Shown here piece by piece: positions 11,849-48,952 of a stretch of 64,000 nucleotides of DNA. Each line of letters opens with the position of its first letter. The stretch's first letter is position 1. Source of the DNA: Escherichia coli. Lineage in GTDB: Bacteria > Pseudomonadota > Gammaproteobacteria > Enterobacterales > Enterobacteriaceae. The stretch lies in NCBI RefSeq assembly GCF_022846255.1, contig NZ_AP025682.1; one strand, given 5' to 3'. Under the pieces are notes generated by a model. The model was not told the DNA's origin and did no database searches. It was given only the letters and a program-made list of their open reading frames with translations. Made by a program: the position numbers and the translations under genes.

Positions 11849-12658
11849 ATGCCTGAATTACCCGAAGTTGAAACCAGCCGTCGCGGCATAGAACCGCATC
11901 TCGTTGGTGCAACCATTCTTCATGCGGTGGTGCGCAACGGACGCCTGCGCTGGCCGGTTTCAGAAGAGATCTACCGATTAAGCGATCAACCAGTGCTTAG
12001 CGTGCAGCGGCGGGCTAAATATCTGCTGCTGGAGCTGCCTGAGGGCTGGATTATCATTCATTTGGGGATGTCTGGCAGCCTGCGCATCCTTCCAGAAGAA
12101 CTTCCCCCTGAAAAGCATGACCATGTGGATTTGGTGATGAGCAACGGTAAAGTGCTGCGCTACACCGATCCGCGCCGCTTTGGTGCCTGGCTGTGGACCA
12201 AAGAGCTGGAAGGGCATAATGTGCTGGCCCATCTTGGACCGGAGCCGCTTAGCGACGATTTCAACGGTGAGTACCTGCATCAGAAGTGCGCGAAGAAAAA
12301 AACGGCGATTAAACCATGGCTGATGGATAACAAGCTGGTGGTAGGCGTAGGGAATATCTATGCCAGCGAATCTCTGTTTGCGGCGGGGATCCATCCGGAT
12401 CGGCTGGCGTCATCACTGTCGCTGGCGGAGTGTGAATTGTTAGCTCGGGTGATTAAAGCGGTGTTGCTGCGTTCGATTGAGCAGGGCGGTACAACGCTGA
12501 AAGATTTTCTGCAAAGTGATGGTAAACCGGGCTATTTCGCGCAGGAATTGCAGGTTTACGGGCGAAAAGGCGAGCCGTGTCGGGTGTGCGGTACGCCGAT
12601 TGTGGCGACTAAACATGCGCAGCGGGCAACGTTTTATTGTCGGCAGTGCCAGAAGTAA
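11849..12658 (+). CDS. mutM: Formamidopyrimidine-DNA glycosylase (MutM/Fpg)
   Basis: 269-aa [39 protein letters not shown]... with C-terminal zinc finger [24 protein letters not shown]. Confidence 0.95.
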
Positions 12659-12667
12659 TTGATGCGA

Positions 12668-12689
12668 GCCGGATGGCATACCATCCGGC
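12668..12689. terminator. Hairpin GCCGGATGG-N4-CCATCCGGC between convergent mutM and coaD
   Basis: Perfect 9-bp inverted repeat in the 38-bp gap between convergent stops; no strong T-run, so function is inferred. Confidence 0.45.
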
Positions 12690-12696
12690 ATAAACG

Positions 12697-14461
<1,765 letters not shown>

Positions 14462-14775
14462 AGTAAATAGCTGACTTATGGATGTGCTGGGGATTCTATG
14501 TATTTAGCTGTGGCTTTACCATTACTTTTCCCGTTTTTGACTTAAATAGCAATTTACCCGCCAATTCTTGCTGAACATCTATACTTTTTTTGTATTTTTA
14601 TGCGATTCATTGATTTCTGCAGTACGTGCAGGAAGGAATCGCAGAGCAACAGTAAAAGAATATGGTTGCTAATGATTTTATTTGATTGATTTCTTTATTG
14701 AAAATCAACAATGTGCTTAAAAATCATTCGGGTCGGATTGCCGCGAAAGAAGTGATACACTAGCGCGTCAATATC

Positions 14776-14825
14776 AGTGCGGTATCAGTATTCAGGTAGC
14801 TGTTGAGCCTGGGGCGGTAGCGTGC
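14776..14825 (+). promoter_or_regulatory. JUMPstart region with ops element GGCGGTAGCGTG (14813-14824) in the waaQ operon leader
   Basis: Exact 12-nt ops sequence about 50-100 nt upstream of the waaQ start on the coding strand; RfaH-dependent antitermination is established for waaQ operons. Confidence 0.7.
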
Positions 14826-14873
14826 TTTTTCTGCTTCACCTTAATCGGATAATCTCAACAAAAAGAGTTACTT

Positions 14874-15932
14874 GTGGATAAGCCATTTCGAAGAATTTTG
14901 CTCATTAAGATGCGTTTTCATGGGGATATGTTATTAACTACTCCCGTCATTAGTTCGCTGAAAAAAAATTACCCTGACGCAAAAATCGATGTGCTGCTTT
15001 ATCAGGACACCATCCCGATCCTGTCTGAAAATCCAGAGATTAACGCGCTCTACGGCATAAAAAATAAAAAAGCAAAAGCTTCAGAAAAAATTGCCAACTT
15101 TTTTCATCTCATCAAGGTATTACGTGCCAATAAGTATGACCTTATCGTTAATCTTACCGATCAATGGATGGTTGCTATACTGGTTCGCTTATTAAATGCC
15201 CGTGTGAAAATTTCCCAGGATTATCATCATCGGCAGTCTGCTTTTTGGCGTAATAGTTTCACTCATTTGGTGCCGTTGCAGGGTGGAAATGTGGTGGAAA
15301 GTAACTTATCCGTGCTGACGCCATTGGGACTTGAATCGTTGGTGAAGCAGACAACCATGAGTTACCCGCCTGCAAGCTGGAAACGTATGCGTCGCGAACT
15401 TGATCACGCTGGTGTTGGACAAAATTATGTGGTTATCCAACCTACGGCGCGGCAAATCTTCAAATGCTGGGACAACGCCAAGTTTTCCGCTGTGATTGAT
15501 GCCTTACATGCTCGTGGTTATGAAGTCGTTCTGACGTCCGGCCCAGATAAAGACGATCTGGCCTGCGTCAATGAAATTGCGCAGGGATGCCAGACGCCAC
15601 CAGTAACGGCGCTGGCCGGAAAGGTGACCTTCCCGGAACTTGGTGCGTTAATCGATCATGCGCAGCTGTTTATTGGCGTTGATTCCGCACCGGCGCATAT
15701 TGCCGCTGCAGTTAATACGCCGCTGATATCGCTGTTTGGTGCGACAGACCATATTTTCTGGCGTCCCTGGTCAAATAACATGATTCAATTCTGGGCGGGA
15801 GATTACCGGGAAATGCCAACGCGCGATCAGCGTGACCGAAATGAGATGTATCTTTCGGTTATTCCGGCGGCAGATGTCATTGCTGCTGTCGATAAATTAC
15901 TGCCCTCCTTCACGACAGGTACGTCGTTATGA
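14874..15932 (+). CDS. waaQ: LPS heptosyltransferase III WaaQ
   Basis: ORF ...MRFHGDMLLTTPVISSLKKNYPDAKIDVLLYQD...; start ambiguous: GTG 14874, TTG 14898 or ATG 14910. Confidence 0.9.
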   Translation: MDKPFRRILLIKMRFHGDMLLTTPVISSLKKNYPDAKIDVLLYQDTIPILSENPEINALYGIKNKKAKASEKIANFFHLIKVLRANKYDLIVNLTDQWMVAILVRLLNARVKISQDYHHRQSAFWRNSFTHLVPLQGGNVVESNLSVLTPLGLESLVKQTTMSYPPASWKRMRRELDHAGVGQNYVVIQPTARQIFKCWDNAKFSAVIDALHARGYEVVLTSGPDKDDLACVNEIAQGCQTPPVTALAGKVTFPELGALIDHAQLFIGVDSAPAHIAAAVNTPLISLFGATDHIFWRPWSNNMIQFWAGDYREMPTRDQRDRNEMYLSVIPAADVIAAVDKLLPSFTTGTSL

Positions 15933-17053
15933 TCGTTGCTTTTTGTTTATATAAATATTTTCCCTTTGGCGGTTTGCAGCGCGATTTTATGCGCATTGCT
16001 CAGACAGTCGCCGCCCGAGGTCATCATGTTCGGGTTTATGCCCAGTCGTGGGAAGGCGAATGCCCTGATGTATTTGAACTGATCAAAGTGCCGGTTAAAT
16101 CGCATACCAATCACGGGCGCAATGCGGAGTATTTTGCCTGGGTGCAAAAACATTTACGTGAACATCCCGTCGATAGAGTCGTTGGATTCAACAAAATGCC
16201 GGGGCTGGACGTTTATTATGCCGCTGATGTTTGTTATGCCGAGAAAGTAGCGCAGGAGAAAGGCTTTTTCTATCGCCTGACGTCACGTTATCGCCATTAT
16301 GCCGCCTTTGAGCGGGCAACCTTCGAACAGGGCAAGCCGACACAGCTGCTGATGCTGACAGATAAGCAAATCGCCGATTTCCAGAAACATTATCAGACTG
16401 AAGCGGAGCGTTTTCATATTCTGCCACCGGGGATTTACCCTGATCGTAAATATAGCCAGCAGCCAGCCAATAGCCGTGAAATCTTCCGTAAGAAGAATGG
16501 AATAACCGAACAACAATATTTATTGTTGCAGGTCGGTTCAGACTTCACGCGTAAAGGTGTTGATCGTTCCATTGAAGCACTTGCTTCATTACCGGATTCG
16601 CTGCGCCACAACACATTGCTATATGTTGTTGGGCAGGATAAACCGCGAAAATTTGAGGCGCTGGCAGAAAAACGCGGCGTGCGCAGTAATGTTCACTTCT
16701 TCTCGGGGCGCAACGATGTCTCGGAATTAATGGCGGCGGCGGATTTATTACTGCATCCTGCCTACCAGGAAGCGGCGGGAATTGTGCTGCTGGAAGCGAT
16801 TACTGCAGGATTACCGGTACTAACAACAGCCGTTTGTGGCTATGCGCATTATATTGTTGACGCCAATTGCGGCGAGGCTATTGCTGAGCCATTCCGCCAG
16901 GAAACATTGAATGAGATTTTACGCAAAGCGTTAACGCAATCTTCATTGCGCCAGGCCTGGGCAGAAAATGCGCGACATTATGCTGATACACAAGATTTAT
17001 ACAGTCTGCCAGAGAAAGCAGCGGACATCATAACGGGTGGTCTGGATGGTTGA
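15929..17053 (+). CDS. waaG: LPS core glucosyltransferase I WaaG
   Basis: 374-aa [49 protein letters not shown]...; start overlaps the waaQ stop. Confidence 0.95.
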
Positions 17054-17843
17054 ACTTAAAGAGCCGTTTGCCACGTTATGGCGCGGTAAAGATCCTTTTG
17101 AGGAAGTTAAAACCTTGCAGGGTGAGGTATTTCGTGAACTGGAAACTCGCCGCACTCTGCGCTTTGAAATGGCGGGCAAAAGCTATTTTCTCAAATGGCA
17201 TCGCGGCACGACCCTGAAAGAGATAATCAAAAATTTACTCTCATTGCGGATGCCAGTATTAGGCGCAGACCGCGAATGGAATGCGATTCATCGACTGCGG
17301 GATGTCGGCGTTGATACTATGTATGGGGTGGCATTCGGCGAAAAAGGCATTAATCCGCTGACCAGAACCTCGTTTATTATTACCGAAGATCTGACACCAA
17401 CCATCAGTCTGGAAGATTACTGTGCTGACTGGGTGACCAACCCACCAGATGTTTGCGTAAAGCGTATGCTTATTAAGCGTGTCGCGACGATGGTGCGCGA
17501 TATGCATGCTGCGGGCATTAACCACCGTGACTGTTATATCTGTCATTTCCTGCTGCACTTGCCTTTTTCCAGTAAGGAAGAGGAGTTAAAAATTTCAGTA
17601 ATTGACCTGCACCGGGCGCAGCTTCGCACGCGCGTTCCACGTCGTTGGCGCGATAAAGATCTTATTGGGCTTTATTTTTCTTCGATGAATATCGGCCTGA
17701 CTCAGCGGGATATCTGGCGGTTTATGAAAGTGTATTTTGTCGCCCCGCTTAAAGACATTCTCAAGCAGGAACAAGGGCTGCTGTCGCAAGCAGAAGCAAA
17801 AGCCACAAAAATCAGGGAAAGAACGATTCGAAAATCGTTGTAA
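17046..17843 (+). CDS. waaP: LPS core heptose(I) kinase WaaP
   Basis: [57 protein letters not shown]...; overlaps the waaG stop. Confidence 0.95.
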
Positions 17844-17858
17844 TTTCCGGAGAGAAAT

Positions 17859-18875
17859 ATGAGTGCCCACTATTTTAATCCACAAGAGATGATCAATAAG
17901 ACAATCATCTTCGATGAAAGGCCAGCGGCGTCAGTGGCATCATCATTCCATGTTGCTTATGGCATTGATAAAAACTTTCTTTTTGGTTGTGGTGTTTCAA
18001 TCACGTCAGTTTTGTTACATAACAACGACGTGAGTTTTGTTTTCCACGTTTTTATTGATGATATCCCTGAAGCTGATATCCAGCGTTTAGCCCAATTGGC
18101 GAAAAGCTATCGTACCTGTATCCAGATCCATCTGGTAAATTGTGAACGGCTTAAGGCATTACCGACGACCAAAAATTGGTCTATTGCCATGTATTTCCGT
18201 TTTGTAATTGCAGATTACTTTATTGATCAACAAGATAAGATCCTTTACCTGGATGCTGATATCGCCTGTCAGGGAAACTTAAAGCCGCTGATAACAATGG
18301 ATCTTGCCAATAACGTTGCTGCTGTTGTTACTGAACGCGATGCTAACTGGTGGTCGTTACGGGGTCAAAGTCTGCAGTGTAATGAACTTGAAAAGGGTTA
18401 CTTTAATTCAGGTGTCCTGTTAATTAATACACTAGCGTGGGCGCAGGAGTCCGTTTCTGCTAAAGCGATGTCGATGCTTGCTGATAAAGCCATCGTTTCC
18501 CGTTTAACCTATATGGATCAAGATATCCTTAATCTTATCCTGTTAGGGAAAGTTAAATTCATTGATGCTAAATACAATACGCAATTTAGTTTAAATTATG
18601 AATTAAAAAAATCATTTGTTTGTCCAATTAATGATGAAACCGTATTAATTCATTATGTCGGCCCGACAAAACCCTGGCATTACTGGGCCGGTTATCCAAG
18701 TGCGCAACCTTTTATCAAAGCCAAAGAAGCATCGCCCTGGAAAAATGAACCGTTAATGCGGCCAGTTAACTCAAACTATGCTCGTTATTGCGCCAAGCAT
18801 AATTTTAAACAAAATAAACCAATTAACGGGATAATGAATTATATTTATTATTTTTATTTAAAGATAATAAAATGA
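17859..18875 (+). CDS. waaO: Outer-core family-8 glycosyltransferase, by position WaaO (alpha-1,3-glucosyltransferase)
   Basis: 338-aa ORF with GT8 hallmarks (YGIDKNFLFG..., YLDADI..., NSGVLLIN); first gene after waaP as in R1/R4 core loci; assignment rests on family plus gene order. Confidence 0.7.
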   Translation: MSAHYFNPQEMINKTIIFDERPAASVASSFHVAYGIDKNFLFGCGVSITSVLLHNNDVSFVFHVFIDDIPEADIQRLAQLAKSYRTCIQIHLVNCERLKALPTTKNWSIAMYFRFVIADYFIDQQDKILYLDADIACQGNLKPLITMDLANNVAAVVTERDANWWSLRGQSLQCNELEKGYFNSGVLLINTLAWAQESVSAKAMSMLADKAIVSRLTYMDQDILNLILLGKVKFIDAKYNTQFSLNYELKKSFVCPINDETVLIHYVGPTKPWHYWAGYPSAQPFIKAKEASPWKNEPLMRPVNSNYARYCAKHNFKQNKPINGIMNYIYYFYLKIIK

Positions 18876-18891
18876 AATTGAGAAAAGTTAA

Positions 18892-19887
18892 ATGAATGAA
18901 TTTATAAAAGAACGGTTTTCGTATTTAGCAGATAATAAAAAAGAAAACGCCCCAGAGCTAAATGTTTCCTACGGTATCGATAAGAATTTTTTGTATGGTG
19001 CTGGCGTTTCAATTTCTTCCGTTTTGATTAATAATTCAGATATTAATTTTGTCTTTCATGTTTTCACTGATTATGTGGATGATGATTATTTAAAGTCATT
19101 TAATGAAACAGCAAAACAATTTAATACCTCAATTATTGTATATTTAATTGACCCCAAATACTTTGCTGATCTGCCGACGTCACAGTTTTGGTCGTACGCG
19201 ACATACTTCAGGGTATTGTCTTTTGAATATCTGAGTGAAAGTATTTCCACACTGCTGTATCTGGATGCCGATGTTGTTTGTAAAGGAAGCCTGAAACCTC
19301 TCACAGAAATTATATTTAAAGATGAGTTTGCTGCGGTCATTCCTGACAATGATAGTACTCAGGCGGCATGTGCAAAACGCCTCAACATTCCCGAAATGAA
19401 TGGACGTTATTTCAATGCAGGCGTTATCTATGTCAATCTTAAAAAATGGCATGAAGCAAATTTGACACCGTATTTACTCACGCTTTTACGAGGGGAAACT
19501 AAATATGGCTCTCTTAAATATTTAGATCAGGATGCGTTGAATATCGCATTTAATATGAATAATATCTACCTCGCGAAGGATTTTGATACTATTTATACCC
19601 TGAAAAACGAACTTCATGATCGTAGTCATCGAAAGTATCAGCAAACCATTACCGATAAAACAGTATTGATTCACTATACAGGGATAACTAAACCATGGCA
19701 TAGCTGGGCTGGATATCCGTCTGCATCATACTTTAATATCGCGCGTGAACAATCTCCCTGGAAGAAATATCCTCTTAAAGAGGCGCGGACTGTTGCAGAA
19801 ATGCAGAAACAATATAAGCATCTGTTTGCCCATGGTGAGTATATAAAAGGCATAACTTCATTAATTAAGTACAAGCTTAAGAAATAA
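18892..19887 (+). CDS. waaT: Outer-core family-8 glycosyltransferase, by position WaaT (alpha-1,2-galactosyltransferase)
   Basis: 331-aa GT8-like ORF (YGIDKNFLYGAGVSISS..., YLDADVVCKG, NAGVIYVN); second GT8 gene in the operon. Confidence 0.6.
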   Translation: MNEFIKERFSYLADNKKENAPELNVSYGIDKNFLYGAGVSISSVLINNSDINFVFHVFTDYVDDDYLKSFNETAKQFNTSIIVYLIDPKYFADLPTSQFWSYATYFRVLSFEYLSESISTLLYLDADVVCKGSLKPLTEIIFKDEFAAVIPDNDSTQAACAKRLNIPEMNGRYFNAGVIYVNLKKWHEANLTPYLLTLLRGETKYGSLKYLDQDALNIAFNMNNIYLAKDFDTIYTLKNELHDRSHRKYQQTITDKTVLIHYTGITKPWHSWAGYPSASYFNIAREQSPWKKYPLKEARTVAEMQKQYKHLFAHGEYIKGITSLIKYKLKK

Positions 19888-19896
19888 ATTACTCTT

Positions 19897-20589
19897 ATGA
19901 TTACAAGTATACGTTATCGCGGCTTCTCATTTTATTACAAAGATAATGATAATAAATATAAAAAAATCTTTGATGAAATACTGGCCTATAATTTTAAAAC
20001 AGTAAAAGTATTACGTAATATTGATGATACCAAAGTATCGTTGATTGATACGAAATATGGTCGCTATGTTTTTAAAGTCTTTGCTCCGAAAACGAAAAGG
20101 AATGAACGTTTTTTAAAATCTTTTGTAAAAGGTGACTACTATCAGAATTTGATCGTTGAAACCGATCGTGTCAGAAGTGCAGGTCTTACTTTTCCTAATG
20201 ATTTTTATTTTCTGGCTGAGCGTAAAATTTTCAACTATGCCAGTGTTTTTATCATGCTTATCGAGTATGTCGAGGGCGTAGAGCTCAATGATATGCCGAT
20301 TATTCCAGAAAATGTTAAAGCAGAAATTAAGGCTTCAATGGAAAAATTGCATGCCTTAAATATGCTATCGGGCGACCCACACCGGGGTAACTTTATCGTT
20401 AGTAAAGATGGTGTCAGGATAATTGACCTATCCGGTAAAAGCTGTACGGCAGAGCGTAAAGCTCGTGATCGTCTGGCCATGGAACGTCACCTGGGTATTG
20501 CCAACGAAATAAAAGATTATGGCTACTATTCAGTAATCTACAGAACCAAACTACGCAAATTTATTAAAAAATTAAAAGGCAAAGCGTAA
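19897..20589 (+). CDS. waaY: LPS core heptose(II) kinase WaaY
   Basis: 230-aa ORF MITSIRYRGFSFYYKDNDNKYKKIFDEILAY... with kinase-like motifs (HGDPHRGNF); right size and position for WaaY. Confidence 0.8.
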   Translation: MITSIRYRGFSFYYKDNDNKYKKIFDEILAYNFKTVKVLRNIDDTKVSLIDTKYGRYVFKVFAPKTKRNERFLKSFVKGDYYQNLIVETDRVRSAGLTFPNDFYFLAERKIFNYASVFIMLIEYVEGVELNDMPIIPENVKAEIKASMEKLHALNMLSGDPHRGNFIVSKDGVRIIDLSGKSCTAERKARDRLAMERHLGIANEIKDYGYYSVIYRTKLRKFIKKLKGKA

Positions 20590-20614
20590 ACCACACAGTC
20601 AAAACGGAACCAAC

Positions 20615-21643
20615 ATGGATTTATTAGCTGAGAGTATTACTGAAGTCGCTGTCTCTGGGGAAATTGCTAACACCGATCGTGTGTTAAATATCGCTTACGG
20701 TATTGACCGCAACTTTTTATTTGGTGCGGCAGTATCTATGCAATCAGTTGTTATGCATAACCCGGACCTTGCGGTTAAGTTTCATCTCTTTACTGACTAC
20801 ATTGATGAAGATTATCTACAACGTGTTAATGCTTTTACCAGCAAAAATGCTAACGTTGAAGTAAGAATTTATAAAGTATCCAGTGCCTTTATTGATATCT
20901 TCCCCAGCCTGAAACAGTGGTCTTATGCAACATTCTTCCGTTTAGTTGCGTTCCAGTATCTGAGTGAAACTATTGAAAATCTGTTATATATCGATGCTGA
21001 TGTCATCTGTAAAGGCTCATTAGCTGGATTGCTTGATATTAATTTTGATGGCGATAAGTTCGCAGCTGTTATTAAAGATGTGCCTTTTATGCAGGAAAAA
21101 CCAGCGAAGCGTCTGGCTATAGAGGGGCTTCCAGGGAATTATTTCAACGCCGGTGTAGTATATCTGCAGCTTGAAGCATGGGCGAAAAATGATTTTATGA
21201 ATAAAGCCATTGCTATGCTGGCAAGTGACCCGCAGCACACGAAATATAAATGCCTTGACCAGGATATTTTAAATATTCTGTTCTTTGGTCATTGTATTTT
21301 TATTAGCGGCGATTATGATTGCTTTTATGGCATTGACTATGAGTTAAAAAATAAAAGCGATGAAGATTATAAAAAGACCATTACCGATGATACTAAGCTG
21401 ATTCATTATGTTGGCGTAACGAAGCCCTGGAACGACTGGACGAATTATCCCTGCCAGAAGTATTTTAATGAGGCTTATCAGGCTTCTTGCTGGAATGATG
21501 TGGCGTTTATTCCAGCAACGAATGAAAAGCAGTATCAAGTGAAATCCAGACATTTGAAAAGAAATGGTAAAATTGCATCTTCATTTTACTATTTCATGCT
21601 CTATTATAGTAAGAAAATAGCGCGTAAGCATTTTTCCAAATAA
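20615..21643 (+). CDS. waaW: Outer-core family-8 glycosyltransferase, by position WaaW (alpha-1,2-galactosyltransferase)
   Basis: 342-aa GT8-like ORF (YGIDRNFLFGAAVSMQS..., YIDADVICKG, NAGVVYLQ); third GT8 gene, following waaY. Confidence 0.6.
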   Translation: MDLLAESITEVAVSGEIANTDRVLNIAYGIDRNFLFGAAVSMQSVVMHNPDLAVKFHLFTDYIDEDYLQRVNAFTSKNANVEVRIYKVSSAFIDIFPSLKQWSYATFFRLVAFQYLSETIENLLYIDADVICKGSLAGLLDINFDGDKFAAVIKDVPFMQEKPAKRLAIEGLPGNYFNAGVVYLQLEAWAKNDFMNKAIAMLASDPQHTKYKCLDQDILNILFFGHCIFISGDYDCFYGIDYELKNKSDEDYKKTITDDTKLIHYVGVTKPWNDWTNYPCQKYFNEAYQASCWNDVAFIPATNEKQYQVKSRHLKRNGKIASSFYYFMLYYSKKIARKHFSK

Positions 21644-21674
21644 TTATTAAGATTAATCATCCAGAGATTTTTTA

Positions 21675-22448
21675 ATGAACTTGCCCATTTATATTGTCTC
21701 ACTTAAAAGAGATATTGAGCGAAGAAATAAAATAAATGATGTTTTTCATCGATTAAATATTAATTTTGATTTTTTTGATGCCATAGATGCTAAAGACCCT
21801 CAAAATAAAGAAATTATTGATAAAATGAGATTAAGTGGTGTCGGCGCAGAAATGACTGATGGAGAAATTGCTTGTACATTAAGTCATCAGCTTATATATC
21901 AGGATATGATAGATAAAAATATAGAATGGGCAGTCATTCTCGAGGATGATGTTATCGTCAATGAGAGATTTAAAAAATTTCTGCAATATTTTAATCTTTC
22001 TGAAAAAGACAAGTTAAAACATAATAATTTGTATTTGCTTGGAGGACAGAAAGGATTACATGATTATCCGGTATTGGGGCAAAGCCTTTTTAGTAAAGTT
22101 AAGGTAAGTACTTGTACTTTTCGGCGTGTTAATTTCAATAAAAATAAAATTCGGCGTACATGTTCATATTTGATGAATAAAGATATGGCACAAAAGTTGC
22201 TCAAATTGACAATGGATTGTGGCACCTATCGAGCTGATAGCTGGAAGTTAATGCATCAACATAATATTATAAAAGATTTTTATTTAGACGAAATAATATT
22301 ACATCCTATTTTAAATGAGTTTAATAGTCACCTTGAAAGTGAAAGGCTTTTAATATCGGAAAAAAAACAACCCAGGACAAGGCTTCAGAAAAAAATGAAG
22401 TTTATACGTTCCTGGATAAAGGTGGCTTTTTTTTCTCTTTTGAAATGA
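21675..22448 (+). CDS. Family-25-like beta-glycosyltransferase (LgtB/Lic2A-like): WaaV (R1) or WaaX (R4)
   Basis: 257-aa ORF MNLPIYIVSLKRDIERRNKINDVF...FDFFDAIDAKD...ACTLSHQLIYQDMIDKN...AVILEDDVIV resembles LgtB-type transferases; I cannot tell WaaV from WaaX without a reference alignment. Confidence 0.7.
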   Translation: MNLPIYIVSLKRDIERRNKINDVFHRLNINFDFFDAIDAKDPQNKEIIDKMRLSGVGAEMTDGEIACTLSHQLIYQDMIDKNIEWAVILEDDVIVNERFKKFLQYFNLSEKDKLKHNNLYLLGGQKGLHDYPVLGQSLFSKVKVSTCTFRRVNFNKNKIRRTCSYLMNKDMAQKLLKLTMDCGTYRADSWKLMHQHNIIKDFYLDEIILHPILNEFNSHLESERLLISEKKQPRTRLQKKMKFIRSWIKVAFFSLLK

Positions 22449-22482
22449 GATTGTTAATTTAAATTTATTGTGAGATATTAAC

Positions 22483-23736
22483 GTGGAAGTAAAAATTGAG
22501 CAATTTCGAAATAACAGCTGTAATTTTATTTTTTTATTATATTTAATCGGTTTATTGTTTGTGCCAATTGATCTAAATATTACCACTAAAATAATTAATG
22601 CTACAGGTGCATTTTCTCTTTTTTTATTAATTGTAAATAACAAGCATAATTATAATAAAAATATCATTATATTAATTCTTGGCTTACTTCTTTTGGGTGC
22701 AATGAACCTGATATGGTATGAGTTTTATAAAACAGAAGATGTAGTATATAGAAATGCTTATCGAGGCTATCTTGAGTCTGGAAAACTATTAGTATTTAGC
22801 TCGTTGACATTTTTATTACTAAGTAAAAATAAATTCAGGCAAAATGAAAAGCTACATTTTATTTCAGCTATCTTAGTTCAAATAATCATGCTATGTAGAG
22901 CATATTATCAAGGGATATATTTGCATGCAGACCGCATTCCCCTCTCCGCCATGAATGGGAATATTGGTCAGATGGGGGCAGCGACTATTGCGGCTTATGT
23001 GATTACATTCACTACTTTATATTCTTCAATTGTATTCATCAAAATGCAATCGAAATATAAATGGTTTCTATTTTATGCTAACTTTGCTTTAAGCTTTGCA
23101 GCAGTAATGATGACAGGAACACGTGCGGCAATTTTCACATTCCCACTTATGATTATGGTCATATTATTTCTTCAGCATCGTGATCAAAAAGTGTTTTTAT
23201 TTAAAGGATTGAGTGGTGTTTTTATATTGCTACTTGCTTGTGGTTTGATATTTAATAAGGAAATTGAGAGGCGAATTAATTCATTAAAAGCTGATGTTAT
23301 TTCATATGCTACAAAAAATAACAGTCAATCCTCGGTCGGAGCACGTTTTGCAATGGTTAATGCAGGAATTAAAGGAAGTCCTGATGGTTTTAATTGGCAA
23401 TCTCTTGAGCAGCGTGCTGAAAAGATAAAAGCATTAAGTGCAGAAAATAATATTTATAGTGGAGCTTTATTATTCCTTGATGTACATATGCATAATGAAA
23501 TTGTTGAATCTCTTTCCACGAAAGGAAAAATTGGTCTTCTTGTTCTTATTATGTTCTATGTTGCAATGATCTATTACTGTATCCGGGAGAAAAAATATAT
23601 ACTCTTGGTTTTCCCTGCTTCTATTATGTTATTTGGCATTAGTGATGTCATTACACATGCTAAACCAATACCGGCATCGTGGATTGTGTGCCTCTTCCTG
23701 TCTATATCGTTTTTGAGTAAAAAAGAACCACAATAA
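22483..23736 (+). CDS. waaL: O-antigen ligase WaaL (polytopic membrane protein)
   Basis: 417-aa, highly hydrophobic, AT-rich ORF at the end of the central waa operon; the track start is a GTG at 22483 and the true start is uncertain; called from position and topology rather than sequence identity. Confidence 0.7.
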   Translation: MEVKIEQFRNNSCNFIFLLYLIGLLFVPIDLNITTKIINATGAFSLFLLIVNNKHNYNKNIIILILGLLLLGAMNLIWYEFYKTEDVVYRNAYRGYLESGKLLVFSSLTFLLLSKNKFRQNEKLHFISAILVQIIMLCRAYYQGIYLHADRIPLSAMNGNIGQMGAATIAAYVITFTTLYSSIVFIKMQSKYKWFLFYANFALSFAAVMMTGTRAAIFTFPLMIMVILFLQHRDQKVFLFKGLSGVFILLLACGLIFNKEIERRINSLKADVISYATKNNSQSSVGARFAMVNAGIKGSPDGFNWQSLEQRAEKIKALSAENNIYSGALLFLDVHMHNEIVESLSTKGKIGLLVLIMFYVAMIYYCIREKKYILLVFPASIMLFGISDVITHAKPIPASWIVCLFLSISFLSKKEPQ

Positions 23737-23751
23737 TAAAAGCGTTGACTA

Positions 23752-23778
23752 AGTAAGTGGGTATAATGCCCACTTACT
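23752..23778. terminator. Hairpin AGTAAGTGGG-N7-CCCACTTACT between convergent waaL and waaC
   Basis: Perfect 10-bp inverted repeat in the 47-bp gap between the two stops; possible bidirectional terminator, inferred. Confidence 0.4.
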
Positions 23779-23783
23779 ATTTA

Positions 23784-24743
23784 TTAAATCAATGTGATTT
23801 TTTTATAAACAGCCGCTGCTTCTAAATTATTTAAATTCATTAGCGGAGCCCTACAAACCATCTGATTCTTCCCATACCCACCAATTAATCCCGGATCGGT
23901 AGGTCCATAAACCGTGATATTGGGTCTATCCAGTGCCGCCGTTAAATGGCTTAACCCCGTATCCACCGACACTACAAATTTAGCCCCGGCCAGTACGCGG
24001 GCAACGCCTTCCAGACTCATCTTCGGCAATACTTCAACATAAGCAAATCCTTCCGCCAGTCGTTTCGCCCGTTCTTCCTCATGCGGCGCGCCCCACGGAA
24101 GTTTAATCCGTATTCCTGAATCAGCCAGTAAACCAATCAATTCTCGCCAGTGTTCTTCCGGCCAGTGTTTATCATCTCGGGTTGTTGCATGAAGAAATAC
24201 GGCATATTCGCCAGCATCTGTAGGCAGGTTCGTCAGGAAATGCTGTGCGATAGCATAATCGCCCTGGGTTTGTGGTTTGCTATAGCCCAGACTTTTGGCA
24301 AACAGTTCGCGGGTGCGTTCTACGGCGTGCTGCTGTTTTGCAATATGATGTTTACGATTGTAAAACAGGCTGGCTAACGGTTCGCGAGCGGTTTGCCAGT
24401 CCATTCCATGCTTTACGCCATGCGCCAGACGCGTCACCAGCGCCGCGCTTTTTACCAGCCCCTGGGCGTCGATAACTGCGTCATAGTTCTTTGCTTGTAG
24501 CGCTTCACGAAACGCTTTGCGTTCAGCTTTTATGGGAGCCGAGAACCAGGCTTTACGCCAGCGACGTATTGCCACAGGAATAACTCGCTCAACGGCAGCG
24601 TGCCAGGAAGGAATCTGTGCGAACCCTTCTTCCACCACCCAGTCAAACTTAATCCCTGGGATTGCCTGCTGGGCATCAGTGAGTGCGGGCAGCGTGTGGA
24701 GAACATCGCCCATCGACGATGTTTTAACGATCAGAACCCGCAT
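23784..24743 (-). CDS. waaC: LPS heptosyltransferase I WaaC
   Basis: 319-aa ORF MRVLIVKTSSMGDVLHTLPALTDAQQAIPGIKFDWVVEEGFAQIPSWH... Confidence 0.9.
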   Translation of the reverse strand: MRVLIVKTSSMGDVLHTLPALTDAQQAIPGIKFDWVVEEGFAQIPSWHAAVERVIPVAIRRWRKAWFSAPIKAERKAFREALQAKNYDAVIDAQGLVKSAALVTRLAHGVKHGMDWQTAREPLASLFYNRKHHIAKQQHAVERTRELFAKSLGYSKPQTQGDYAIAQHFLTNLPTDAGEYAVFLHATTRDDKHWPEEHWRELIGLLADSGIRIKLPWGAPHEEERAKRLAEGFAYVEVLPKMSLEGVARVLAGAKFVVSVDTGLSHLTAALDRPNITVYGPTDPGLIGGYGKNQMVCRAPLMNLNNLEAAAVYKKITLI

Positions 24744-24746
24744 CCG

Positions 24747-25793
24747 TCAGGCTTCCTCTTGTAACAATAGCGCGTTGAGTTCTTCCAGTACGCGCTGGGG
24801 AGTAATGTCGATCAAGCTCTGGTGATAACCCTCCGCAGCGTCACCTTTACGCACTTTGTGATAGCCGGTAATCAGGCGGATCACGCGCGCTTTATGGGAT
24901 AGCGGTGGTGTGAAGTCCGGGCTGCTTGGTCCATACAGGGCAACCAGCGGACGATTGAGCGCCGCCGCAACGTGCATCAGACCAGAATCGTTAGTGACAA
25001 TGGCCTTACAGGCTGCAATCAGGATAACCGCTTGATCAAGCTGTGTTTCTCCCGCCAGATTCCGACACCATGCCTGCTGCTCGGTATTCAAAGCGGCAAG
25101 AATCTCATTGCCCGCCTCATGATCTTTCGCCGAGCCAAACAGAACTACCTGATAACCTTCATCAATCAGCTGCTTTGCCAGCTCCGCATAGTGGTAGTGT
25201 GGCCAGCGTTTTGCCGGACCAAACTCCGCACCCGGGCAAAAACCAATCATCGGACGTTCTGATGAGAGCGAAAATTGATTACAGGTATATGATTTTTCAC
25301 CTTCGCTCACCTGCAACTGCGGCCATAACAATGGTTGCGGCAGATCTTGTGCGGTACGCATAACGCCTTTGTCATAGGCCAGCGCGATATAGCGTTCCAC
25401 CATTAGCGGCCAGGCTTCTTTATCGAGCACGCGTACATCGTTGAGTAAACCGTAGCGCATCTCGCCGCGCCAGCCGGTGCGATGAGGAATACCTGCGAAG
25501 AAAGGCACTAATGCGGATTTGAAGGAGTTAGGTAAGACGTAGGCGCGGTCGTAGCGCTTTTCACGCAGACTATGACCCAGTTTGCGGCGTTCGCCGATTT
25601 CCAGCGCTCCGTGACCGAGAGGCATAGGGATCGCTTCGTTAACTTCCGGCATCCGCGATAATAATGGACGGCACCATGCCGGTGCCATCACGTCGATTAT
25701 CGCCTGGGGATAGCGCGCCTGGAGCGTGCGATAGAGACTTTGCGACATCATCATGTCGCCAACCCAAGACGGGCCGATCACCAGTATTTTCAT
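24747..25793 (-). CDS. waaF: LPS heptosyltransferase II WaaF
   Basis: 348-aa ORF MKILVIGPSWVGDMMMSQSLYRTLQARYPQAIIDVMAPAWCRPLLSRMPEVNEAIP... Confidence 0.95.
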   Translation of the reverse strand: MKILVIGPSWVGDMMMSQSLYRTLQARYPQAIIDVMAPAWCRPLLSRMPEVNEAIPMPLGHGALEIGERRKLGHSLREKRYDRAYVLPNSFKSALVPFFAGIPHRTGWRGEMRYGLLNDVRVLDKEAWPLMVERYIALAYDKGVMRTAQDLPQPLLWPQLQVSEGEKSYTCNQFSLSSERPMIGFCPGAEFGPAKRWPHYHYAELAKQLIDEGYQVVLFGSAKDHEAGNEILAALNTEQQAWCRNLAGETQLDQAVILIAACKAIVTNDSGLMHVAAALNRPLVALYGPSSPDFTPPLSHKARVIRLITGYHKVRKGDAAEGYHQSLIDITPQRVLEELNALLLQEEA

Positions 25794-25802
25794 GCAGAGC
25801 TC

Positions 25803-26735
25803 TTATGCGTCACGATTCAGCCAGGCCATGTATTCCGTTACGCCTTCGGCAACGGTTTTGAACGGTTTATCGTAACCCGCCGCGCGCAGATTCGTCAGAT
25901 CTGCCTGAGTGAACGCCTGGTAGCGGCCTTTCAGTTTATCCGGGAACGGAATGTATTCGATTTGGCCTTTCTTGTGATAAGCAAGCGTAGCATCTGCTAC
26001 TGCCTGGAAGGATTCCGCACGACCGGTGCCGAGGTTGAAGATGCCGGAAACGCCATTTTCCAGGAACCACAGGTTTACATCTGCCACGTCGCCCACATAG
26101 ACGAAGTCACGTTTAAAGTTCTCGCTACCTTCGAACAGCTTCGGTGATTCACCGTTATTAAGCTGGGTGTTGAGATGGAAAGCGACGCTCGCCATACTGC
26201 CTTTATGGCCTTCACGCGGTCCATAAACGTTGAAATAACGGAAGCCAACAATCTGCGAGTTCGCTTCAGGCAGGATTTGGCGAACATATTCATCAAACAG
26301 GAATTTTGAGTAACCGTAGACATTCAACGGTTTTTCATATTCGCGGGATTCAATAAAGTCGGAGGTGCGTCCACCGTAAGTGGCTGCGGAAGAGGCATAC
26401 AGGAACGGGATTTCGCGCTCCAGACAGTAGTGCAGCAGCTCTTTGGAGTATTGATAGTTGTTATCCATCATATACTTGCCGTCCCACTCGGTGGTGGAAG
26501 AGCACGCGCCTTCGTGGAAAATCGCTTCGACATCGCCGAACTCTTCGCCAGCCATAATCTGGATCAGGAAGTCTTCCTTATCCATATAGTCCGCGATATC
26601 CAGATCCACCAGGTTCACAAACTTGGTGCCGTCTTTCAGGTTGTCCACCACCAGAATATCGGTGATGCCTTTATCATTCAGGGCTTTAACGATGTTGCTT
26701 CCGATAAAGCCCGCGCCGCCGGTAACGATGATCAT
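25803..26735 (-). CDS. hldD: ADP-L-glycero-D-manno-heptose 6-epimerase
   Basis: 310-aa [45 protein letters not shown]... (Rossmann GGAGFIG). Confidence 0.95.
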
Positions 26736-26948
26736 AACTGTAACCTTCGAATTATGGAGTCAGAGACAATCTCAGACACGAATACTTCTATCATATCACT
26801 ACATGACGTTGGCTTCAGCCATTCACCAAAAGTGAGGGGGCTGGACGTTATTTATCCTGAATTTTGCAGAAGTGTTAACGCGTCATCTCGTCGCGACCTA
26901 TAAGTTTGGGTAATATGTGCTGGAATTTGCCCTGTCTGGAGAATCGCA

Positions 26949-28145
26949 ATGCGTGGAGAATTTTATCAGCAGTTAACCAACGATCTGGAAACCGCACGGG
27001 CGGAAGGGTTGTTTAAAGAAGAGCGCATTATTACGTCTGCGCAGCAAGCAGATATCACTGTGGCTGATGGAAGCCACGTCATTAACTTTTGTGCCAACAA
27101 CTATCTCGGACTGGCGAATCATCCGGATCTGATTGCGGCGGCAAAGGCGGGAATGGATTCTCACGGTTTCGGCATGGCTTCGGTGCGTTTTATTTGCGGT
27201 ACCCAGGACAGCCATAAAGAGCTTGAACAAAAACTGGCGGCATTCCTGGGGATGGAAGATGCGATTCTCTACTCTTCCTGCTTTGATGCTAACGGTGGCC
27301 TGTTTGAAACGCTGCTGAGCGCGGAGGACGCCATTATCTCCGACGCACTGAACCACGCGTCTATTATTGATGGTGTGCGTCTGTGTAAAGCCAAACGCTA
27401 TCGTTATGCCAACAACGATATGCAGGAGCTGGAAGCACGTCTGAAAGAAGCGCGTGAAGCCGGTGCGCGTCATGTGCTGATTGCCACCGATGGTGTGTTC
27501 TCGATGGACGGCGTGATTGCCAACCTGAAGGGCGTTTGCGATCTGGCAGATAAATACGATGCCTTGGTGATGGTAGACGACTCCCACGCGGTCGGTTTTG
27601 TCGGTGAAAATGGTCGTGGTTCCCATGAATACTGCGATGTGATGGGGCGTGTAGACATCATTACCGGTACGTTGGGTAAAGCGTTGGGCGGGGCTTCTGG
27701 TGGTTATACCGCGGGGCGCAAAGAAGTGGTTGAGTGGCTGCGCCAGCGTTCTCGTCCGTACCTGTTCTCCAACTCGCTGGCACCAGCGATTGTCGCCGCA
27801 TCCATCAAAGTACTGGAGATGGTCGAAGCGGGTAGCGAGCTGCGTGACCGTCTGTGGGCGAACGCGCGTCAGTTCCGTGAGCAAATGTCGGCGGCGGGCT
27901 TTACCCTGGCGGGAGCCGATCACGCCATTATTCCCGTCATGCTTGGCGATGCGGTAGTGGCGCAGAAATTTGCCCGTGAGCTGCAAAAAGAGGGCATTTA
28001 CGTCACCGGTTTCTTCTATCCGGTCGTTCCTAAAGGTCAGGCGCGTATTCGTACCCAGATGTCTGCGGCGCATACCCCTGAGCAAATTACGCGTGCAGTA
28101 GAAGCATTCACGCGTATTGGTAAACAACTGGGCGTTATCGCCTGA
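26949..28145 (+). CDS. kbl: 2-amino-3-ketobutyrate CoA ligase
   Basis: 398-aa [62 protein letters not shown]... Confidence 0.95.
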
Positions 28146-28154
28146 GGGTGTGAG

Positions 28155-29180
28155 ATGAAAGCGTTATCCAAACTGAAAGCGGAAGAGGGCATCTGGATGA
28201 CCGACGTTCCTGTACCGGAACTCGGGCATAACGATCTGCTGATTAAAATCCGTAAAACAGCCATCTGCGGGACTGACGTTCACATCTATAACTGGGATGA
28301 GTGGTCGCAAAAAACCATCCCGGTGCCGATGGTCGTGGGCCATGAATATGTCGGTGAAGTGGTAGGTATTGGTCAGGAAGTGAAAGGCTTCAAGATTGGC
28401 GATCGCGTTTCTGGCGAAGGCCATATCACCTGCGGTCACTGTCGCAACTGTCGTGGCGGTCGTACCCATCTGTGCCGCAACACGATCGGCGTCGGTGTTA
28501 ACCGTCCGGGCTGCTTCGCCGAGTATCTGGTGATTCCGGCGTTCAACGCCTTCAAAATCCCGGACAATATCTCCGACGACCTGGCTTCCATTTTTGATCC
28601 CTTCGGTAACGCTGTGCATACCGCGCTGTCGTTCGATCTGGTTGGCGAGGATGTGCTGGTCTCTGGTGCAGGTCCGATAGGTATTATGGCTGCGGCGGTG
28701 GCGAAACACGTTGGTGCACGCAATGTGGTGATCACTGATGTTAACGAATACCGCCTTGAGCTGGCACGCAAAATGGGTATCACCCGTGCGGTTAACGTCG
28801 CTAAAGAAAACCTTAATGATGTGATGACAGAACTGGGCATGACCGAAGGCTTTGATGTCGGTCTGGAAATGTCCGGTGCGCCGCCAGCGTTTCGTACCAT
28901 GCTCGACACCATGAACCACGGCGGTCGTATTGCGATGCTGGGTATTCCACCGTCCGATATGTCTATCGACTGGACCAAAGTAATCTTTAAAGGCTTGTTC
29001 ATTAAAGGTATTTACGGTCGTGAGATGTTTGAAACCTGGTACAAGATGGCGGCGCTGATTCAGTCTGGCCTCGATCTCTCGCCGATCATTACCCATCGTT
29101 TCTCTATCGATGATTTCCAGAAGGGCTTTGACGCTATGCGTTCGGGCCAGTCCGGGAAAGTTATTCTGAGCTGGGATTAA
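28155..29180 (+). CDS. tdh: L-threonine 3-dehydrogenase
   Basis: 341-aa [59 protein letters not shown]... Confidence 0.95.
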
Positions 29181-45300: not shown

Positions 45301-47021
45301 TTAGTGATACTGGTGGTATTGCCAGCGACGTCGTTGGTCAGATTAGTGATATTGGTAGTGTTGGCAGCAACGTCGTCTTTGGTGGCTTTCAACTGCGAAC
45401 CGTTAACAGCGTCAGTGCTGCCAGCAGTCAGGCTGCCAGCACTGACGTTGGTGATTTTGCTGGTGGCTTCGGTGCCGTGTGCGGCACTGAATGCTGTGCC
45501 GTTCCACAACAGAGCATCCTGCTGCAGGTCGTACAATTGAGAGCCGTTTACTACATCGGTGCTGGTTGCAGAAACCGTACCTTTAGCAACATTAGTGATT
45601 TTGTTGGTGGCATTTGCACCGTGATTGGCGCTGAACGCCCCCGCGGTTTTATTCCATTGTAGGGTATTATTGTCGATTCCTGACAGAGCATCACCCACGT
45701 TATTATAGGTTCCGCTTCTCAACGCGTAGCTTACTGCGGTTACGGTGCCATCGCTGCCTACAGTAGCGCCTCCTCCGAGTCGCTTGGCGACTGAATCACT
45801 GATCGTATAAAGCTGTGAGCCGTTGATGGCATCGGTACTGGTGTTGCTTATGGCACCAGCAGCCATATTAACAATTTTGCGTTTTGTTGCGCTGTTGCCA
45901 ACTGAAACCGTATTGCTTGCATCTGTGGTCGATCCTGCGCCGATAGCGACAGAATTGTCGGTCGCTGCTGCAGCCCCTACACCGAGGGCGACAGAATCAT
46001 TGCCGTTTGCCCTGGACTGGCTACCGAAAGCAAGGCTGTTGCTGCCACCAGCGGCACTACCCTCTCCCAATGCGATGGCATTCTCTCCCGAGGACAAACT
46101 GTTACTTCCCAACGCGATTGAGTTCACTTTGCTTGCAATGCTACCTTGCCCCAGCGCAATCGCATTTTGTTCGCTGGCTTCACTGGTGTTACCTAATGCA
46201 ATACTGGATTCGCCAGATGCCTGACTTGCATTACCCAGGGCCATCGAATTCACTCCCAGGGCTTGCGTTTTGTTCCCAATCGCGATGGCGTTATCGTTCG
46301 AACTGATACTGTCAGCACCTATTGCCAGTGAGCCAGTGCTATTAGCTGTAGATTGTCTGCCGAATGCGAGGCTATCAGCACCGGCAGCATTGCTACTTGC
46401 TCCCAGCGCCATTGCATAATCTTTTGACGCATTGGCATTATCACCGAGGGCGATGCTCATAATTTCGTAAGCTTTAGCCGAATTTCCTAACGCAATAGTT
46501 TTTTCACCATCGGCAAGGGAGGAGTCCCCAATAGCAAGAGATGTATAACCATTCGTCTTTGCGTAACGACCAAAAGCCATCGAACGATCGCCATTTGCTA
46601 CTGACGATGCACCCAGCGCGACACTTCTGTCACCCATTGATTTTGCACTAACCCCGAACGCCATGGATGCTCCACCAGTTGCAAGGGTTTTTGACCCGAT
46701 GGCAGAACTGTACTCACCTTCGGCTATCGCGTCATATCCTAAAGCTGTACTCGCGCCACTAGTGTTCATAAAGGTATTTGCTTTTGCCCCTTTACCGATA
46801 GCAACCCAGCCGTCACCTGCTGAGCCATCGCCATAATCAGTTGGCTGCCCGTCGTAGTTATTAGCTAACGCTCCAAACGACGACAACAACCCACCCGCAA
46901 CCAACGCAGAAATTAACAGCTTACTGCGCCCGCTTTTTTTACCACGGCTCTTCGCCGTTTCGCTGGCAACGCTGTAACTGCCCGTCGCCGGGTTCCAGAT
47001 AACTTTAAATATTTTATTCAT
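42390..47021 (-). CDS. upaG: Trimeric autotransporter adhesin, UpaG/EhaG/SadA family (1543 aa)
   Basis: N-terminal extended signal peptide [21 protein letters not shown]...; long low-complexity stalk with tandem repeats; C-terminal YadA-like anchor ending ...[13 protein letters not shown]; located between yibL and lldP, where UpaG/EhaG sit. Confidence 0.85.
44640..45620. repeat. Tandem 249-bp (83-codon) direct repeats inside the adhesin gene, about 3 near-identical copies plus diverged flanking copies
   Basis: Segment ttggtgattttgctggtggcgtcagtgccgtgcgcagcgctgaatgctgtgccc... recurs near 44701, 44950 and 45199; the protein shows the unit [25 protein letters not shown]...[11 protein letters not shown] three times. 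Confidence 0.85.
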
Positions 47022-47064
47022 TATTGATGCTCTCTATTCCTTGATATAAGCGCAGAGGCTGCAT

Positions 47065-47748
47065 TTATTTTTTGTTTTTCCGCTGTGGAGATTCAGCAGT
47101 TTGAAGACGGTCGAACTGAATATTTGCCATGTTGATGGCTAATTTCAGATATTTGAGGTTGTTGGGCGAGACACCTTTTAGCGTCAAATTAATGTCTTGC
47201 CATTGACCTGGTAATAATTTCAGGGAGGAGTTCATTGAGGTACTAAATAGCAATTGCTGCCATTTTGCTAATGCGTTGATGTCGGTGGGTTTTTCTCCCC
47301 CCCATGTCGCGTAGAAACCCATATTTGATACAGGAACACTTAATAAGTTAACCAGTGAAATACGAATAACGCTGCCGTTTTCTACTGCGTCAATAGACAG
47401 TATTTTCCCTGCCAAACCAACAGAACCGTTATTTAAAATGAAGTATTGGGTTTGTGCCGGGTTAAATTCTGTAAAGACAAATTCGTCCTGTTTGTCTTTA
47501 ACTGCCTTCACCACGCCAGCGAGCGTTTTGGTACTGTTTATGATGGTAGTTTGTTGTTTTTCAAAGTGTTCTATCTTGCGCTTGTCGAGTTCTTGTTGTT
47601 TTTCAAGCGCCTCAATTTTGCTTTTTTGTAACTCTTGCTGTGTAACGAGATCGTCGACCTTACTCGCTTTTTCAATATAGTCACACCCTACCAATAAGCA
47701 AAGTTGCAATATCATTAACACGCTTAACAGTGTTTTCTTTAGGTTCAT
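47065..47748 (-). CDS. SadB-like lipoprotein encoded just upstream of the adhesin gene
   Basis: 227-aa ORF with lipoprotein signal peptide and lipobox (LLVGC), then a coiled-coil-like stretch (ELQKSKIEALEKQQELDKRKIEHFEKQQ) and a C-terminal domain; 43 bp upstream of and co-oriented with the adhesin gene, like Salmonella sadB-sadA. Confidence 0.65.
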   Translation of the reverse strand: MNLKKTLLSVLMILQLCLLVGCDYIEKASKVDDLVTQQELQKSKIEALEKQQELDKRKIEHFEKQQTTIINSTKTLAGVVKAVKDKQDEFVFTEFNPAQTQYFILNNGSVGLAGKILSIDAVENGSVIRISLVNLLSVPVSNMGFYATWGGEKPTDINALAKWQQLLFSTSMNSSLKLLPGQWQDINLTLKGVSPNNLKYLKLAINMANIQFDRLQTAESPQRKNKK

Positions 47749-48669: not shown

Positions 48670-48952
48670 GTGATGACTTCTGATAGAGATAAATTTATAG
48701 CCTCTAGTATGCGCGACCAGGTGCTTTGTTCACAACTAATGGCATTGTAATAGTTCCAGATTGTAACCATTAATGCGTTAAAAAATCACCCAATACATTG
48801 ATTAGTTAAGAAATTTAAAGAAAAAAGATAGTCAACAGAAGCAGGTGATTATTGAGGATTGAGCACGTTTTCCTTAATGTCATTTATACCGGGATCTAAA
48901 CTAAAATTGGCGGCCGCGCATTCCCGGCGCGGGGTAATACGGAGATATCATC

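Follow-up and report, generated by a model that had tools for sequence, protein, structure and literature searches.

Which of the Escherichia coli lipopolysaccharide core types does this waa locus specify? The preliminary description placed the genes at 17859-23736 in an R1/R4 organisation (waaO-T-Y-W-V/X-L), a choice that turns on a single slot: R4 is defined by waaX and R1 by waaV (PMC3526765, PMC13293308). The R4 locus, with type strain F2513, goes back to Heinrichs et al. 1998, a citation given by both PMC3526765 and PMC13293308. We analyzed the whole 64-kb stretch of DNA (the window) and narrowed the ambiguity to R4, since waaX is present and waaV absent. Judged by its sequence, the waa locus is an intact one of R4 type and the region forms its outer-core half, a reading to which we give a probability of about 95%. 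The features are as follows.

13184-14461, minus strand: waaA, Kdo transferase, transcribed away from the central operon; conserved flank with 96-100% DNA identity to K-12.
14786-14824, plus strand: JUMPstart element in the waaQ leader (Rfam RF01707, 55.2 bits versus a gathering score of 35).
14813-14824, plus strand: ops sequence GGCGGTAGCGTG, inside JUMPstart (sequence match).
14874-15932, plus strand: waaQ, heptosyltransferase III (NF007742, 711 bits); same length as the PGAP rfaQ of an R4 genome.
15929-17053, plus strand: waaG, GT4 glucosyltransferase I for the first outer-core glucose; matches the annotated waaG in R4, K-12, and R1 genomes.
17046-17843, plus strand: waaP, heptose I kinase (NF011703, 478 bits); the longest ORF begins at a GTG at 17037, and the PGAP start of the homologous genome corresponds to 17046.
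17859-18875, plus strand: waaO, GT8 alpha-1,3 transferase for the second outer-core hexose, 338 aa (PF01501, 272 bits; NF011718, 612 bits).
18892-19887, plus strand: waaT, GT8 alpha-1,2 transferase, 331 aa (PF01501, 244 bits).
19897-20589, plus strand: waaY, heptose II kinase, 230 aa (PF06176, 429 bits; NF007684, 400 bits).
20615-21643, plus strand: waaW, GT8 alpha-1,2-galactosyltransferase, 342 aa; the last 32 residues (311-342) are R4 specific.
21547-23843, no strand: R4-specific cassette, roughly 2.3 kb, with no DNA homology to the R1 locus.
21675-22448, plus strand: waaX, GT25 beta-galactosyltransferase, the R4 determinant, 257 aa (PF01755 Glyco_transf_25, 171 bits).
22483-23736, plus strand: waaL, R4 allele, O-antigen (surface polymer:lipid A-core) ligase, 417 aa (homology and motifs).
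23752-23778, no strand: hairpin with a 12-bp stem, within the 47 bp that separate waaL from the convergent waaC.
23784-24743, minus strand: waaC, heptosyltransferase I (NF008204, 631 bits); residues 301-319 form a core-type-specific tail.
24747-25793, minus strand: waaF, heptosyltransferase II (ORF list and annotated R4 genome).
25803-26735, minus strand: hldD/rfaD, ADP-heptose 6-epimerase, heading the hldD-waaF-waaC operon.

Six intact plus-strand genes follow waaQ-waaG-waaP: three for GT8 transferases and one each for the WaaY kinase, a GT25 protein, and a WaaL-type ligase. Their positions and strand are exactly those first given, and Pfam agrees with the original reading of GT8 transferases interleaved with the kinase and followed by GT25 and a 417-aa ligase, the ligase domain scoring just under its cutoff. 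All nine genes from waaQ to waaL (waaQ-G-P-O-T-Y-W-X-L) lie intact on a single strand, led by JUMPstart/ops and convergent with hldD-waaF-waaC. The nine proteins are full length, with one to five substitutions each relative to R4 strain CFSAN061771, and over 11859-29000 the window and the annotated R4-type genome NZ_CP042896 are colinear, with no gaps. Pseudogenization or disruption by an insertion sequence (IS) was rejected because every ORF is full length. The marked AT richness of the block is borne out by the GC profile, 0.29 to 0.39 across 18500-23999 versus 0.50 to 0.55 (about 52%) in the flanks.

The first four outer-core genes point to R1 and R4 together. Glyco_transf_8 and Glyco_transf_8C domains were found in the 338-, 331-, and 342-aa proteins (243 to 272 bits, Pfam), and WaaW is related to LgtC (PDB 1g9r, E = 2.4e-17). 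Compared with their R1/R4 counterparts, the GT8 proteins and the kinase show 94-100% identity, versus 31-55% for those of K-12 and R3. WaaO, whose exact sequence bears the UniProt identifier Q9ZIS5_ECOLX, is 100% identical to WaaO of an R1 strain and 51% to K-12 WaaO; WaaT shares 99% identity with its R1/R4 equivalent and 43% with WaaJ of K-12. WaaG differs from its R4 and R1 homologs at two residues.

What assigns the locus to R4 is the next gene. A GT25 gene, waaX, occupies the slot that waaV fills in R1; its product covers positions 3 to 192 of the 199 in the PF01755 profile, is 99.6% identical to WaaX of an R4 genome, and matches the solved structure 8xc8, a member of the GT25 lipopolysaccharide/lipooligosaccharide beta-galactosyltransferases (E = 4.6e-13). 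It would differ from other members of that group in its acceptor, the enterobacterial outer core. The exact sequence has been deposited as "beta1,4-galactosyltransferase WaaX" (BDH31270.1), and reviews disagree on the linkage, given as beta-1,4 in PMC13293308 and as beta-1,3 in PMC3526765. No NCBIfam model hit WaaX or WaaL at E ≤ 0.001. The typing PCR proposed in the preliminary description gave the same answer when performed in silico with the primers of PMC13293308: R1R4-R matches perfectly at 21484-21503 (plus strand) and R4-F at 21845-21863 (minus strand), inside waaX, for a product of 380 bp, which is the published size of the R4 waaW-waaX product (PMC13293308). The R1, R2, R3, and K-12 primers of that set have no site at ≤2 mismatches. 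With provisional sequences for the typing primers of Amor et al. 2000, only "R4K14" matched (21491-21510), "R4C4" having no match at ≤2 mismatches; this result was given no weight in either direction. The R4 label draws on co-occurrence, on the depositor's naming of the gene, and on a published primer scheme.

To see how common this arrangement is, we turned to complete E. coli genomes: all 5,878 bp are present in 690 of 5,426 (12.7%) at 98.3-99.3% identity, and a published R4 prevalence is 13.0% (PMC8715443). The 690 genomes annotate the locus as waaO, GT8, rfaY, GT8, GT25, and O-antigen ligase. In most of the other matching genomes the match is confined to query positions 1 to about 3,700, with a GT2 gene beyond. 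IS insertions are present in some R4 loci among the matching genomes. Plasmid-borne outer-core copies were rejected, as the six PLSDB matches are chromosome-sized records or 3- to 10-kb contigs labeled as plasmids.

The gene sets of K-12 and R3, which would have contradicted an R1/R4 organisation, were not found. K-12 shares hldD, waaF, waaC, waaA, waaQ, waaG, waaP, and waaY, together with the leader upstream of waaQ. It has waaS-B-O-J-Y-Z-U, however, with waaL placed after waaC in the hldD operon, whereas here waaL lies on the strand opposite to waaC. As first described, waaL closes the central operon and converges on waaC, unlike in K-12 and R3 (O157:H7), and the gene order is that of annotated R4 and R1 genomes. 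No homolog of K-12 WaaS, WaaB, WaaZ, or WaaU was found in the 64-kb window by tblastn. The K-12 and R2 core types, which carry waaS, waaB, and waaZ plus either waaU or waaK, were rejected on the absence of these four genes and of both primer sets, the case against R2 being made solely by its primers and the genes it shares with K-12. The R3 type, in which the order is waaI/O-Y-J-D and waaL follows waaC, was also rejected: R3 WaaL of the O157:H7 locus has no match in the window, the R3 primers have no site, and R3 WaaD gives a weak, 23% paralogous match inside waaG. DNA identity to K-12 drops to 63-86% from about 14500 through waaQ-G-P, with little or no alignment beyond. The left edge of the divergence from K-12 falls in the waaA-waaQ intergenic region near 14500, not at the waaP/waaO junction.

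One rival is an R1-type locus (waaO-T-Y-W-V-L, type strain F470), the commonest E. coli core type. Its organisation is the same, waaL is likewise last and convergent on waaC, and htrL is absent from both. WaaO, WaaT, and WaaY are 99-100% and WaaW is 94% identical to those of the R1 strain, and at the DNA level the match is 99% between 11000 and about 21546, with near-identity all the way from waaA to waaW codon 310. At about 21546, however, homology ends, to resume only at 23844. The eighth gene encodes a GT25 protein rather than WaaV (GT2, 327 aa), to which it shows no similarity in direct comparison; the R1-F primer site is absent, and WaaL is just 35% identical to R1 WaaL. We consider an R1 assignment vanishingly improbable. 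An R1/R4 hybrid or rearranged locus has a precedent in ECOR46, where waaV and waaX occur together, along with two waaL genes and an IS element (PMC13293308), and, as noted, IS elements do interrupt some R4 loci. Against this, the window holds a single waaL and, by tblastn, no waaV, the sole WaaV-like match being the paralog waaH at 29419; no transposase ORF lies in the locus, and the gap-free colinearity described above is with an ordinary R4 genome. A hybrid is therefore extremely unlikely.

The segment without R1 homology (21547-23843) opens in the 3' end of waaW, takes in waaX, waaL, and the intergenic hairpin, and closes with the final 60 nt of waaC. This waaX-waaL cassette and the R1 waaV-waaL cassette are interchangeable. 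Both breakpoints fall within 3' ends, those of waaW and waaC. The suspicion that the 3' end of waaC departs from K-12 at a breakpoint proved well founded: the last 19 residues differ, and residues 1-300 differ at one position only. These 19 residues are core-type specific and delimit the variable block on its right side. The WaaW tail (last 32 aa) and the WaaC tail (after "CRAP") are unlike those of R1, and each invariably accompanies the waaX-waaL or waaV-waaL cassette. A further reading accepts an R4-like locus and supposes that variant WaaX and WaaL alleles produce a noncanonical core or ligation specificity. The exact WaaX and WaaL sequences are indeed rare alleles, found on two contigs; WaaX differs at 7 to 9 residues from the cluster members compared, with M180 in none of six sequences compared, and 3 of the 19 residues in the WaaC tail are different in another R4 strain. 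Identity nevertheless remains at 96-99.6%, within the normal allelic range, the substitutions are mostly conservative, and WaaL retains the Arg and His positions aligned with ligase catalytic motifs, so that this reading is exceedingly improbable. It is also very unlikely that the WaaW and WaaC tails are functionally matched to the core type or that the rare alleles alter acceptor or ligation specificity. Tail matching might act, for example, via contacts in a membrane-associated assembly complex, the tails then being more than hitchhiking recombination scars. We retain the assignment to an R4-type locus. The region shares with the known R4 core-type locus gene content and order, waaX, the waaL allele, the terminal position of waaL, low GC content, and the right amplicon size. 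Differences are allelic only, the one to five substitutions per protein being those relative to CFSAN061771.

On homology and motifs, the ninth gene is a WaaL homolog, in the allele that accompanies waaX: WaaL is 99.0% identical to that of a waaX-carrying genome and 31% to K-12 WaaL. It shows full-length homology to K-12 WaaL (E = 2e-43, with 383 aa aligned), matches R1 WaaL at E = 7e-75, and matches the solved WaaL 7TPG across the catalytic loop (E = 6.8e-8). The Wzy_C/O-antigen ligase domain (PF04932) scores 30.7 bits (E = 3.1e-7), under the gathering cutoff of 31.7; this is a near miss typical of divergent ligases. Hydrophobicity analysis gave nine hydrophobic windows, in about eight distinct segments, and a hydrophilic stretch at roughly 262-348. 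The protein thus has the family's hallmarks, a polytopic membrane protein with a large predicted periplasmic loop carrying conserved Arg and His. Its motifs GTRA (212), VGAR (285), and HMHNE (335) align with TQTRA, LGAR, and HLHNE of K-12 WaaL, and 7TPG has HAHND; the aligned Arg and His residues are presumably catalytic.

How would this operon be expressed and its products act? The ops/JUMPstart element is the recruitment site for RfaH antitermination. By family knowledge, RfaH would be recruited at ops and would keep transcription going to the end of this long, AT-rich operon. Within it, promoter-like hexamers are no commoner than in shuffled sequence (27 found versus 30.4 expected), and we therefore claim no internal promoters. 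The waaL/waaC intergenic hairpin is likely a bidirectional terminator. At the cytoplasmic face, again by family knowledge, WaaG would put glucose I on heptose II, and the retaining GT8 enzymes WaaO, WaaT, and WaaW would lengthen the main chain, predicted to be R1-like, by Glc II, Gal I, and Gal II. The side branch that sets R4 apart from R1, a beta-galactose, would be added by the inverting GT25 enzyme WaaX, and WaaP, WaaQ, and WaaY would phosphorylate and heptosylate the inner core. MsbA would then flip the lipid A-core, and in the periplasm WaaL would join undecaprenyl-PP-linked O-antigen to the core. The core structure and the ligation site are likewise predicted ones.

The locus is an ordinary copy of an already-known system, with nothing unusual about it. 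R4 was genetically defined in 1998, accounts for about 13% of E. coli, and is routinely typed; thus, the window reveals nothing new about biology. Because the core type sets the acceptor for O-antigen ligation and influences recognition by phages, antibodies, and protists, R4 status is a useful typing fact for the strain.

The outer-core genes of the window form an R4-type locus. Six ORFs lie exactly where the preliminary description had placed them; the features discussed below are as follows.

Features of the waa region and its surroundings (positions in the window)
14786-14824, JUMPstart element (Rfam, 55.2 bits; gathering score, 35)
17859-23736, plus strand, six ORFs of 338, 331, 230, 342, 257, and 417 aa, in this order
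21547-21643, tail of WaaW (residues 311 to 342), differing between core types
23752-23778, hairpin with a 12-bp stem, within the 47 bp separating waaL from waaC, which converge
23784-23843, tail of WaaC, differing between core types
29001-54000, waaH, yibQ, envC, gpmM, secB, cysE, lldPRD, an ∼5-kb YadA-like trimeric autotransporter gene, and the mtl operon

Pfam searches bore out the proposed gene families. The 338-, 331-, and 342-aa proteins have GT8 and GT8 C-terminal domains, the 230-aa protein belongs to the WaaY family (429 bits), and the 257-aa protein is a GT25 (171 bits); the ligase-type protein fell just below threshold. NCBIfam equivalogs identified waaQ and waaP upstream, waaO as the first of the six, and waaC as the gene converging on them from downstream. 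None of the nine operon proteins is truncated, and each carries 1 to 5 substitutions relative to another R4 strain. The region is AT rich, as described: GC content is 0.29 to 0.39 over 18500-23999 versus 0.50 to 0.55 on both flanks.

A megablast search of 5,426 complete E. coli genomes found the entire 5,878-bp query in 690 (12.7%), at 98.3 to 99.3% identity, annotated as waaO, GT8, rfaY, GT8, GT25, and O-antigen ligase. Of the remaining matching genomes, most align only over the first 63% of the query, through the end of waaW. One representative of each class was fetched. The full match, NZ_CP042896, aligns colinearly with window positions 11859-29000 (98.7% identity). In the partial match, NZ_CP016628, homology ends at ∼21546 and resumes at 23844; between these breakpoints, a GT2 gene (327 aa) and a ligase other than that of the window form the waaV-waaL arrangement of R1. 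No similarity was detectable between the 257-aa protein and this GT2 protein; the exact 257-aa sequence is in GenBank under BDH31270.1, "beta1,4-galactosyltransferase WaaX." With published core-typing primers (PMC13293308), in silico PCR found perfect R1R4-R (21484-21503) and R4-F (21845-21863) sites yielding 380 bp, the size of the published R4 product (PMC13293308); the R1, R2, R3, and K-12 primers did not bind in the window, even with two mismatches allowed. Thus, the proposed R1/R4 organization can be narrowed to R4.

Comparison with translated reference loci (K-12, R1, R3 from O157:H7, and R4) by BLASTP gave the same picture. Each window protein is 98.5 to 99.7% identical to its R4 counterpart; WaaO, WaaT, and WaaY are 99 to 100% identical to those of R1 and WaaW is 94% identical, and the best K-12 or R3 matches are only 31 to 55% identical. 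By tblastn, the 64 kb lack WaaS, WaaB, WaaZ, and WaaU and also lack R3 WaaL, waaV, and a second ligase. R3 WaaD had a sole weak (23%), paralogous match inside waaG. Best matches to K-12 WaaS, WaaB, or WaaJ or to an R3 set were looked for and not found; R2 is excluded by its primers and by the genes that it shares with K-12. For this window, an ECOR46-like hybrid, with both waaV and waaX and two ligases, is excluded as well. Six PLSDB "plasmid" records with waa outer-core genes are chromosome sized (1.0 to 4.9 Mb) or 3- to 10-kb contigs; judged mislabeled by size, they were rejected as plasmid-borne core genes.

DNA identity to K-12 is 96 to 100% up to 14499, the end of waaA, and drops to 63 to 86% across the waaQ leader and waaQ-G-P (14500-17843), which are 97 to 100% identical to R1 and R4. 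Therefore, the K-12-divergent block begins in the waaA-waaQ intergenic region rather than at the waaP/waaO junction. Beyond waaP, the K-12 alignment vanishes save for weak waaO and waaY matches, returning at 94 to 98% from 23827. The right edge lies inside waaC: WaaC differs from K-12 at only one of residues 1 to 300 but differs in its last 19 residues, and in the four core types compared, the tail after the motif CRAP is type specific, with the window having the R4 tail. The suspected breakpoint at the 3' end of waaC is thus correct. The WaaC tails of R1 and R3 have the first 9 residues in common and differ thereafter. R1 and R4 differ by a 2.3-kb cassette (21547-23843) whose left edge is inside waaW, making the last 32 WaaW residues type specific as well; hence, recombination edges fall within coding sequence.

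Outside the locus, no htrL (yibB) gene lies between hldD and kbl, where the gap is only 213 bp (26736-26948). The examined reference genomes of types R4 and R1 lack it too, and it is present at this position in K-12 and the R3 O157:H7 genome; its distribution may track core type. The 25 kb downstream (29001-54000) are ordinary E. coli chromosome. Among the 5,426 genomes, the best match covers 95% of the query at only 97.8% identity, so either the set holds no very close relative of the strain or the alleles here are divergent. A second low-GC patch (0.38 to 0.42; 47001-49000), adjoining the YadA-like adhesin gene, corresponds by synteny with NZ_CP069945 to a DUF3251 gene plus the intergenic stretch that precedes yibL.

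The 417-aa protein scored 30.7 bits for the O-antigen ligase domain Wzy_C, narrowly under the 31.7-bit Pfam cutoff. Despite this near miss, several lines of sequence evidence support its assignment as WaaL. It aligns end to end with WaaL of K-12 (31%, E = 2e-43) and R1 (35%, E = 7e-75) and matches 7TPG, to our knowledge the only solved WaaL, over the catalytic loop (E = 6.8e-8). Nine hydrophobic windows (approximately eight distinct segments) were counted in it, and its hydrophilic loop contains VGAR (285) and HMHNE (335), which line up with their counterparts in K-12 WaaL and 7TPG. Among proteins of known structure, WaaX matches GT25 members (8xc8, E = 4.6e-13), and WaaW matches the GT8 enzyme LgtC (1g9r, E = 2.4e-17). 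The NCBI label of WaaO, "3-alpha-galactosyltransferase," comes from the equivalog model and is a predicted donor only; K-12 WaaO, unlike it, is annotated as a glucosyltransferase.

Within the JUMPstart element, 50 nt before the first codon of waaQ, is the ops sequence GGCGGTAGCGTG. The hairpin between waaL and waaC looks like a bidirectional terminator, and promoter-like hexamers inside the operon are in no excess over shuffled sequence. From established knowledge of these families, RfaH recruited at ops would prevent premature termination across the AT-rich operon. WaaG, WaaO, WaaT, and WaaW would assemble the main chain, Glc-Glc-Gal-Gal, on heptose II, and WaaP, WaaQ, and WaaY would decorate the heptose region. 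WaaX would add the beta-galactose branch setting R4 apart from R1, in which WaaV adds beta-glucose (PMC3526765); sources disagree on the WaaX linkage, which the depositor's name and PMC13293308 give as beta-1,4 and PMC3526765 gives as beta-1,3. In the periplasm, WaaL would ligate Und-PP-linked O antigen to the finished core.

In organization, gene set, low GC content, and conserved flanks, the locus fits the published account of the five E. coli core types (PMC8715443), and the R4 frequency found here agrees with the published 13.0%. We conclude that the system is a known one, present here as an ordinary allelic variant.
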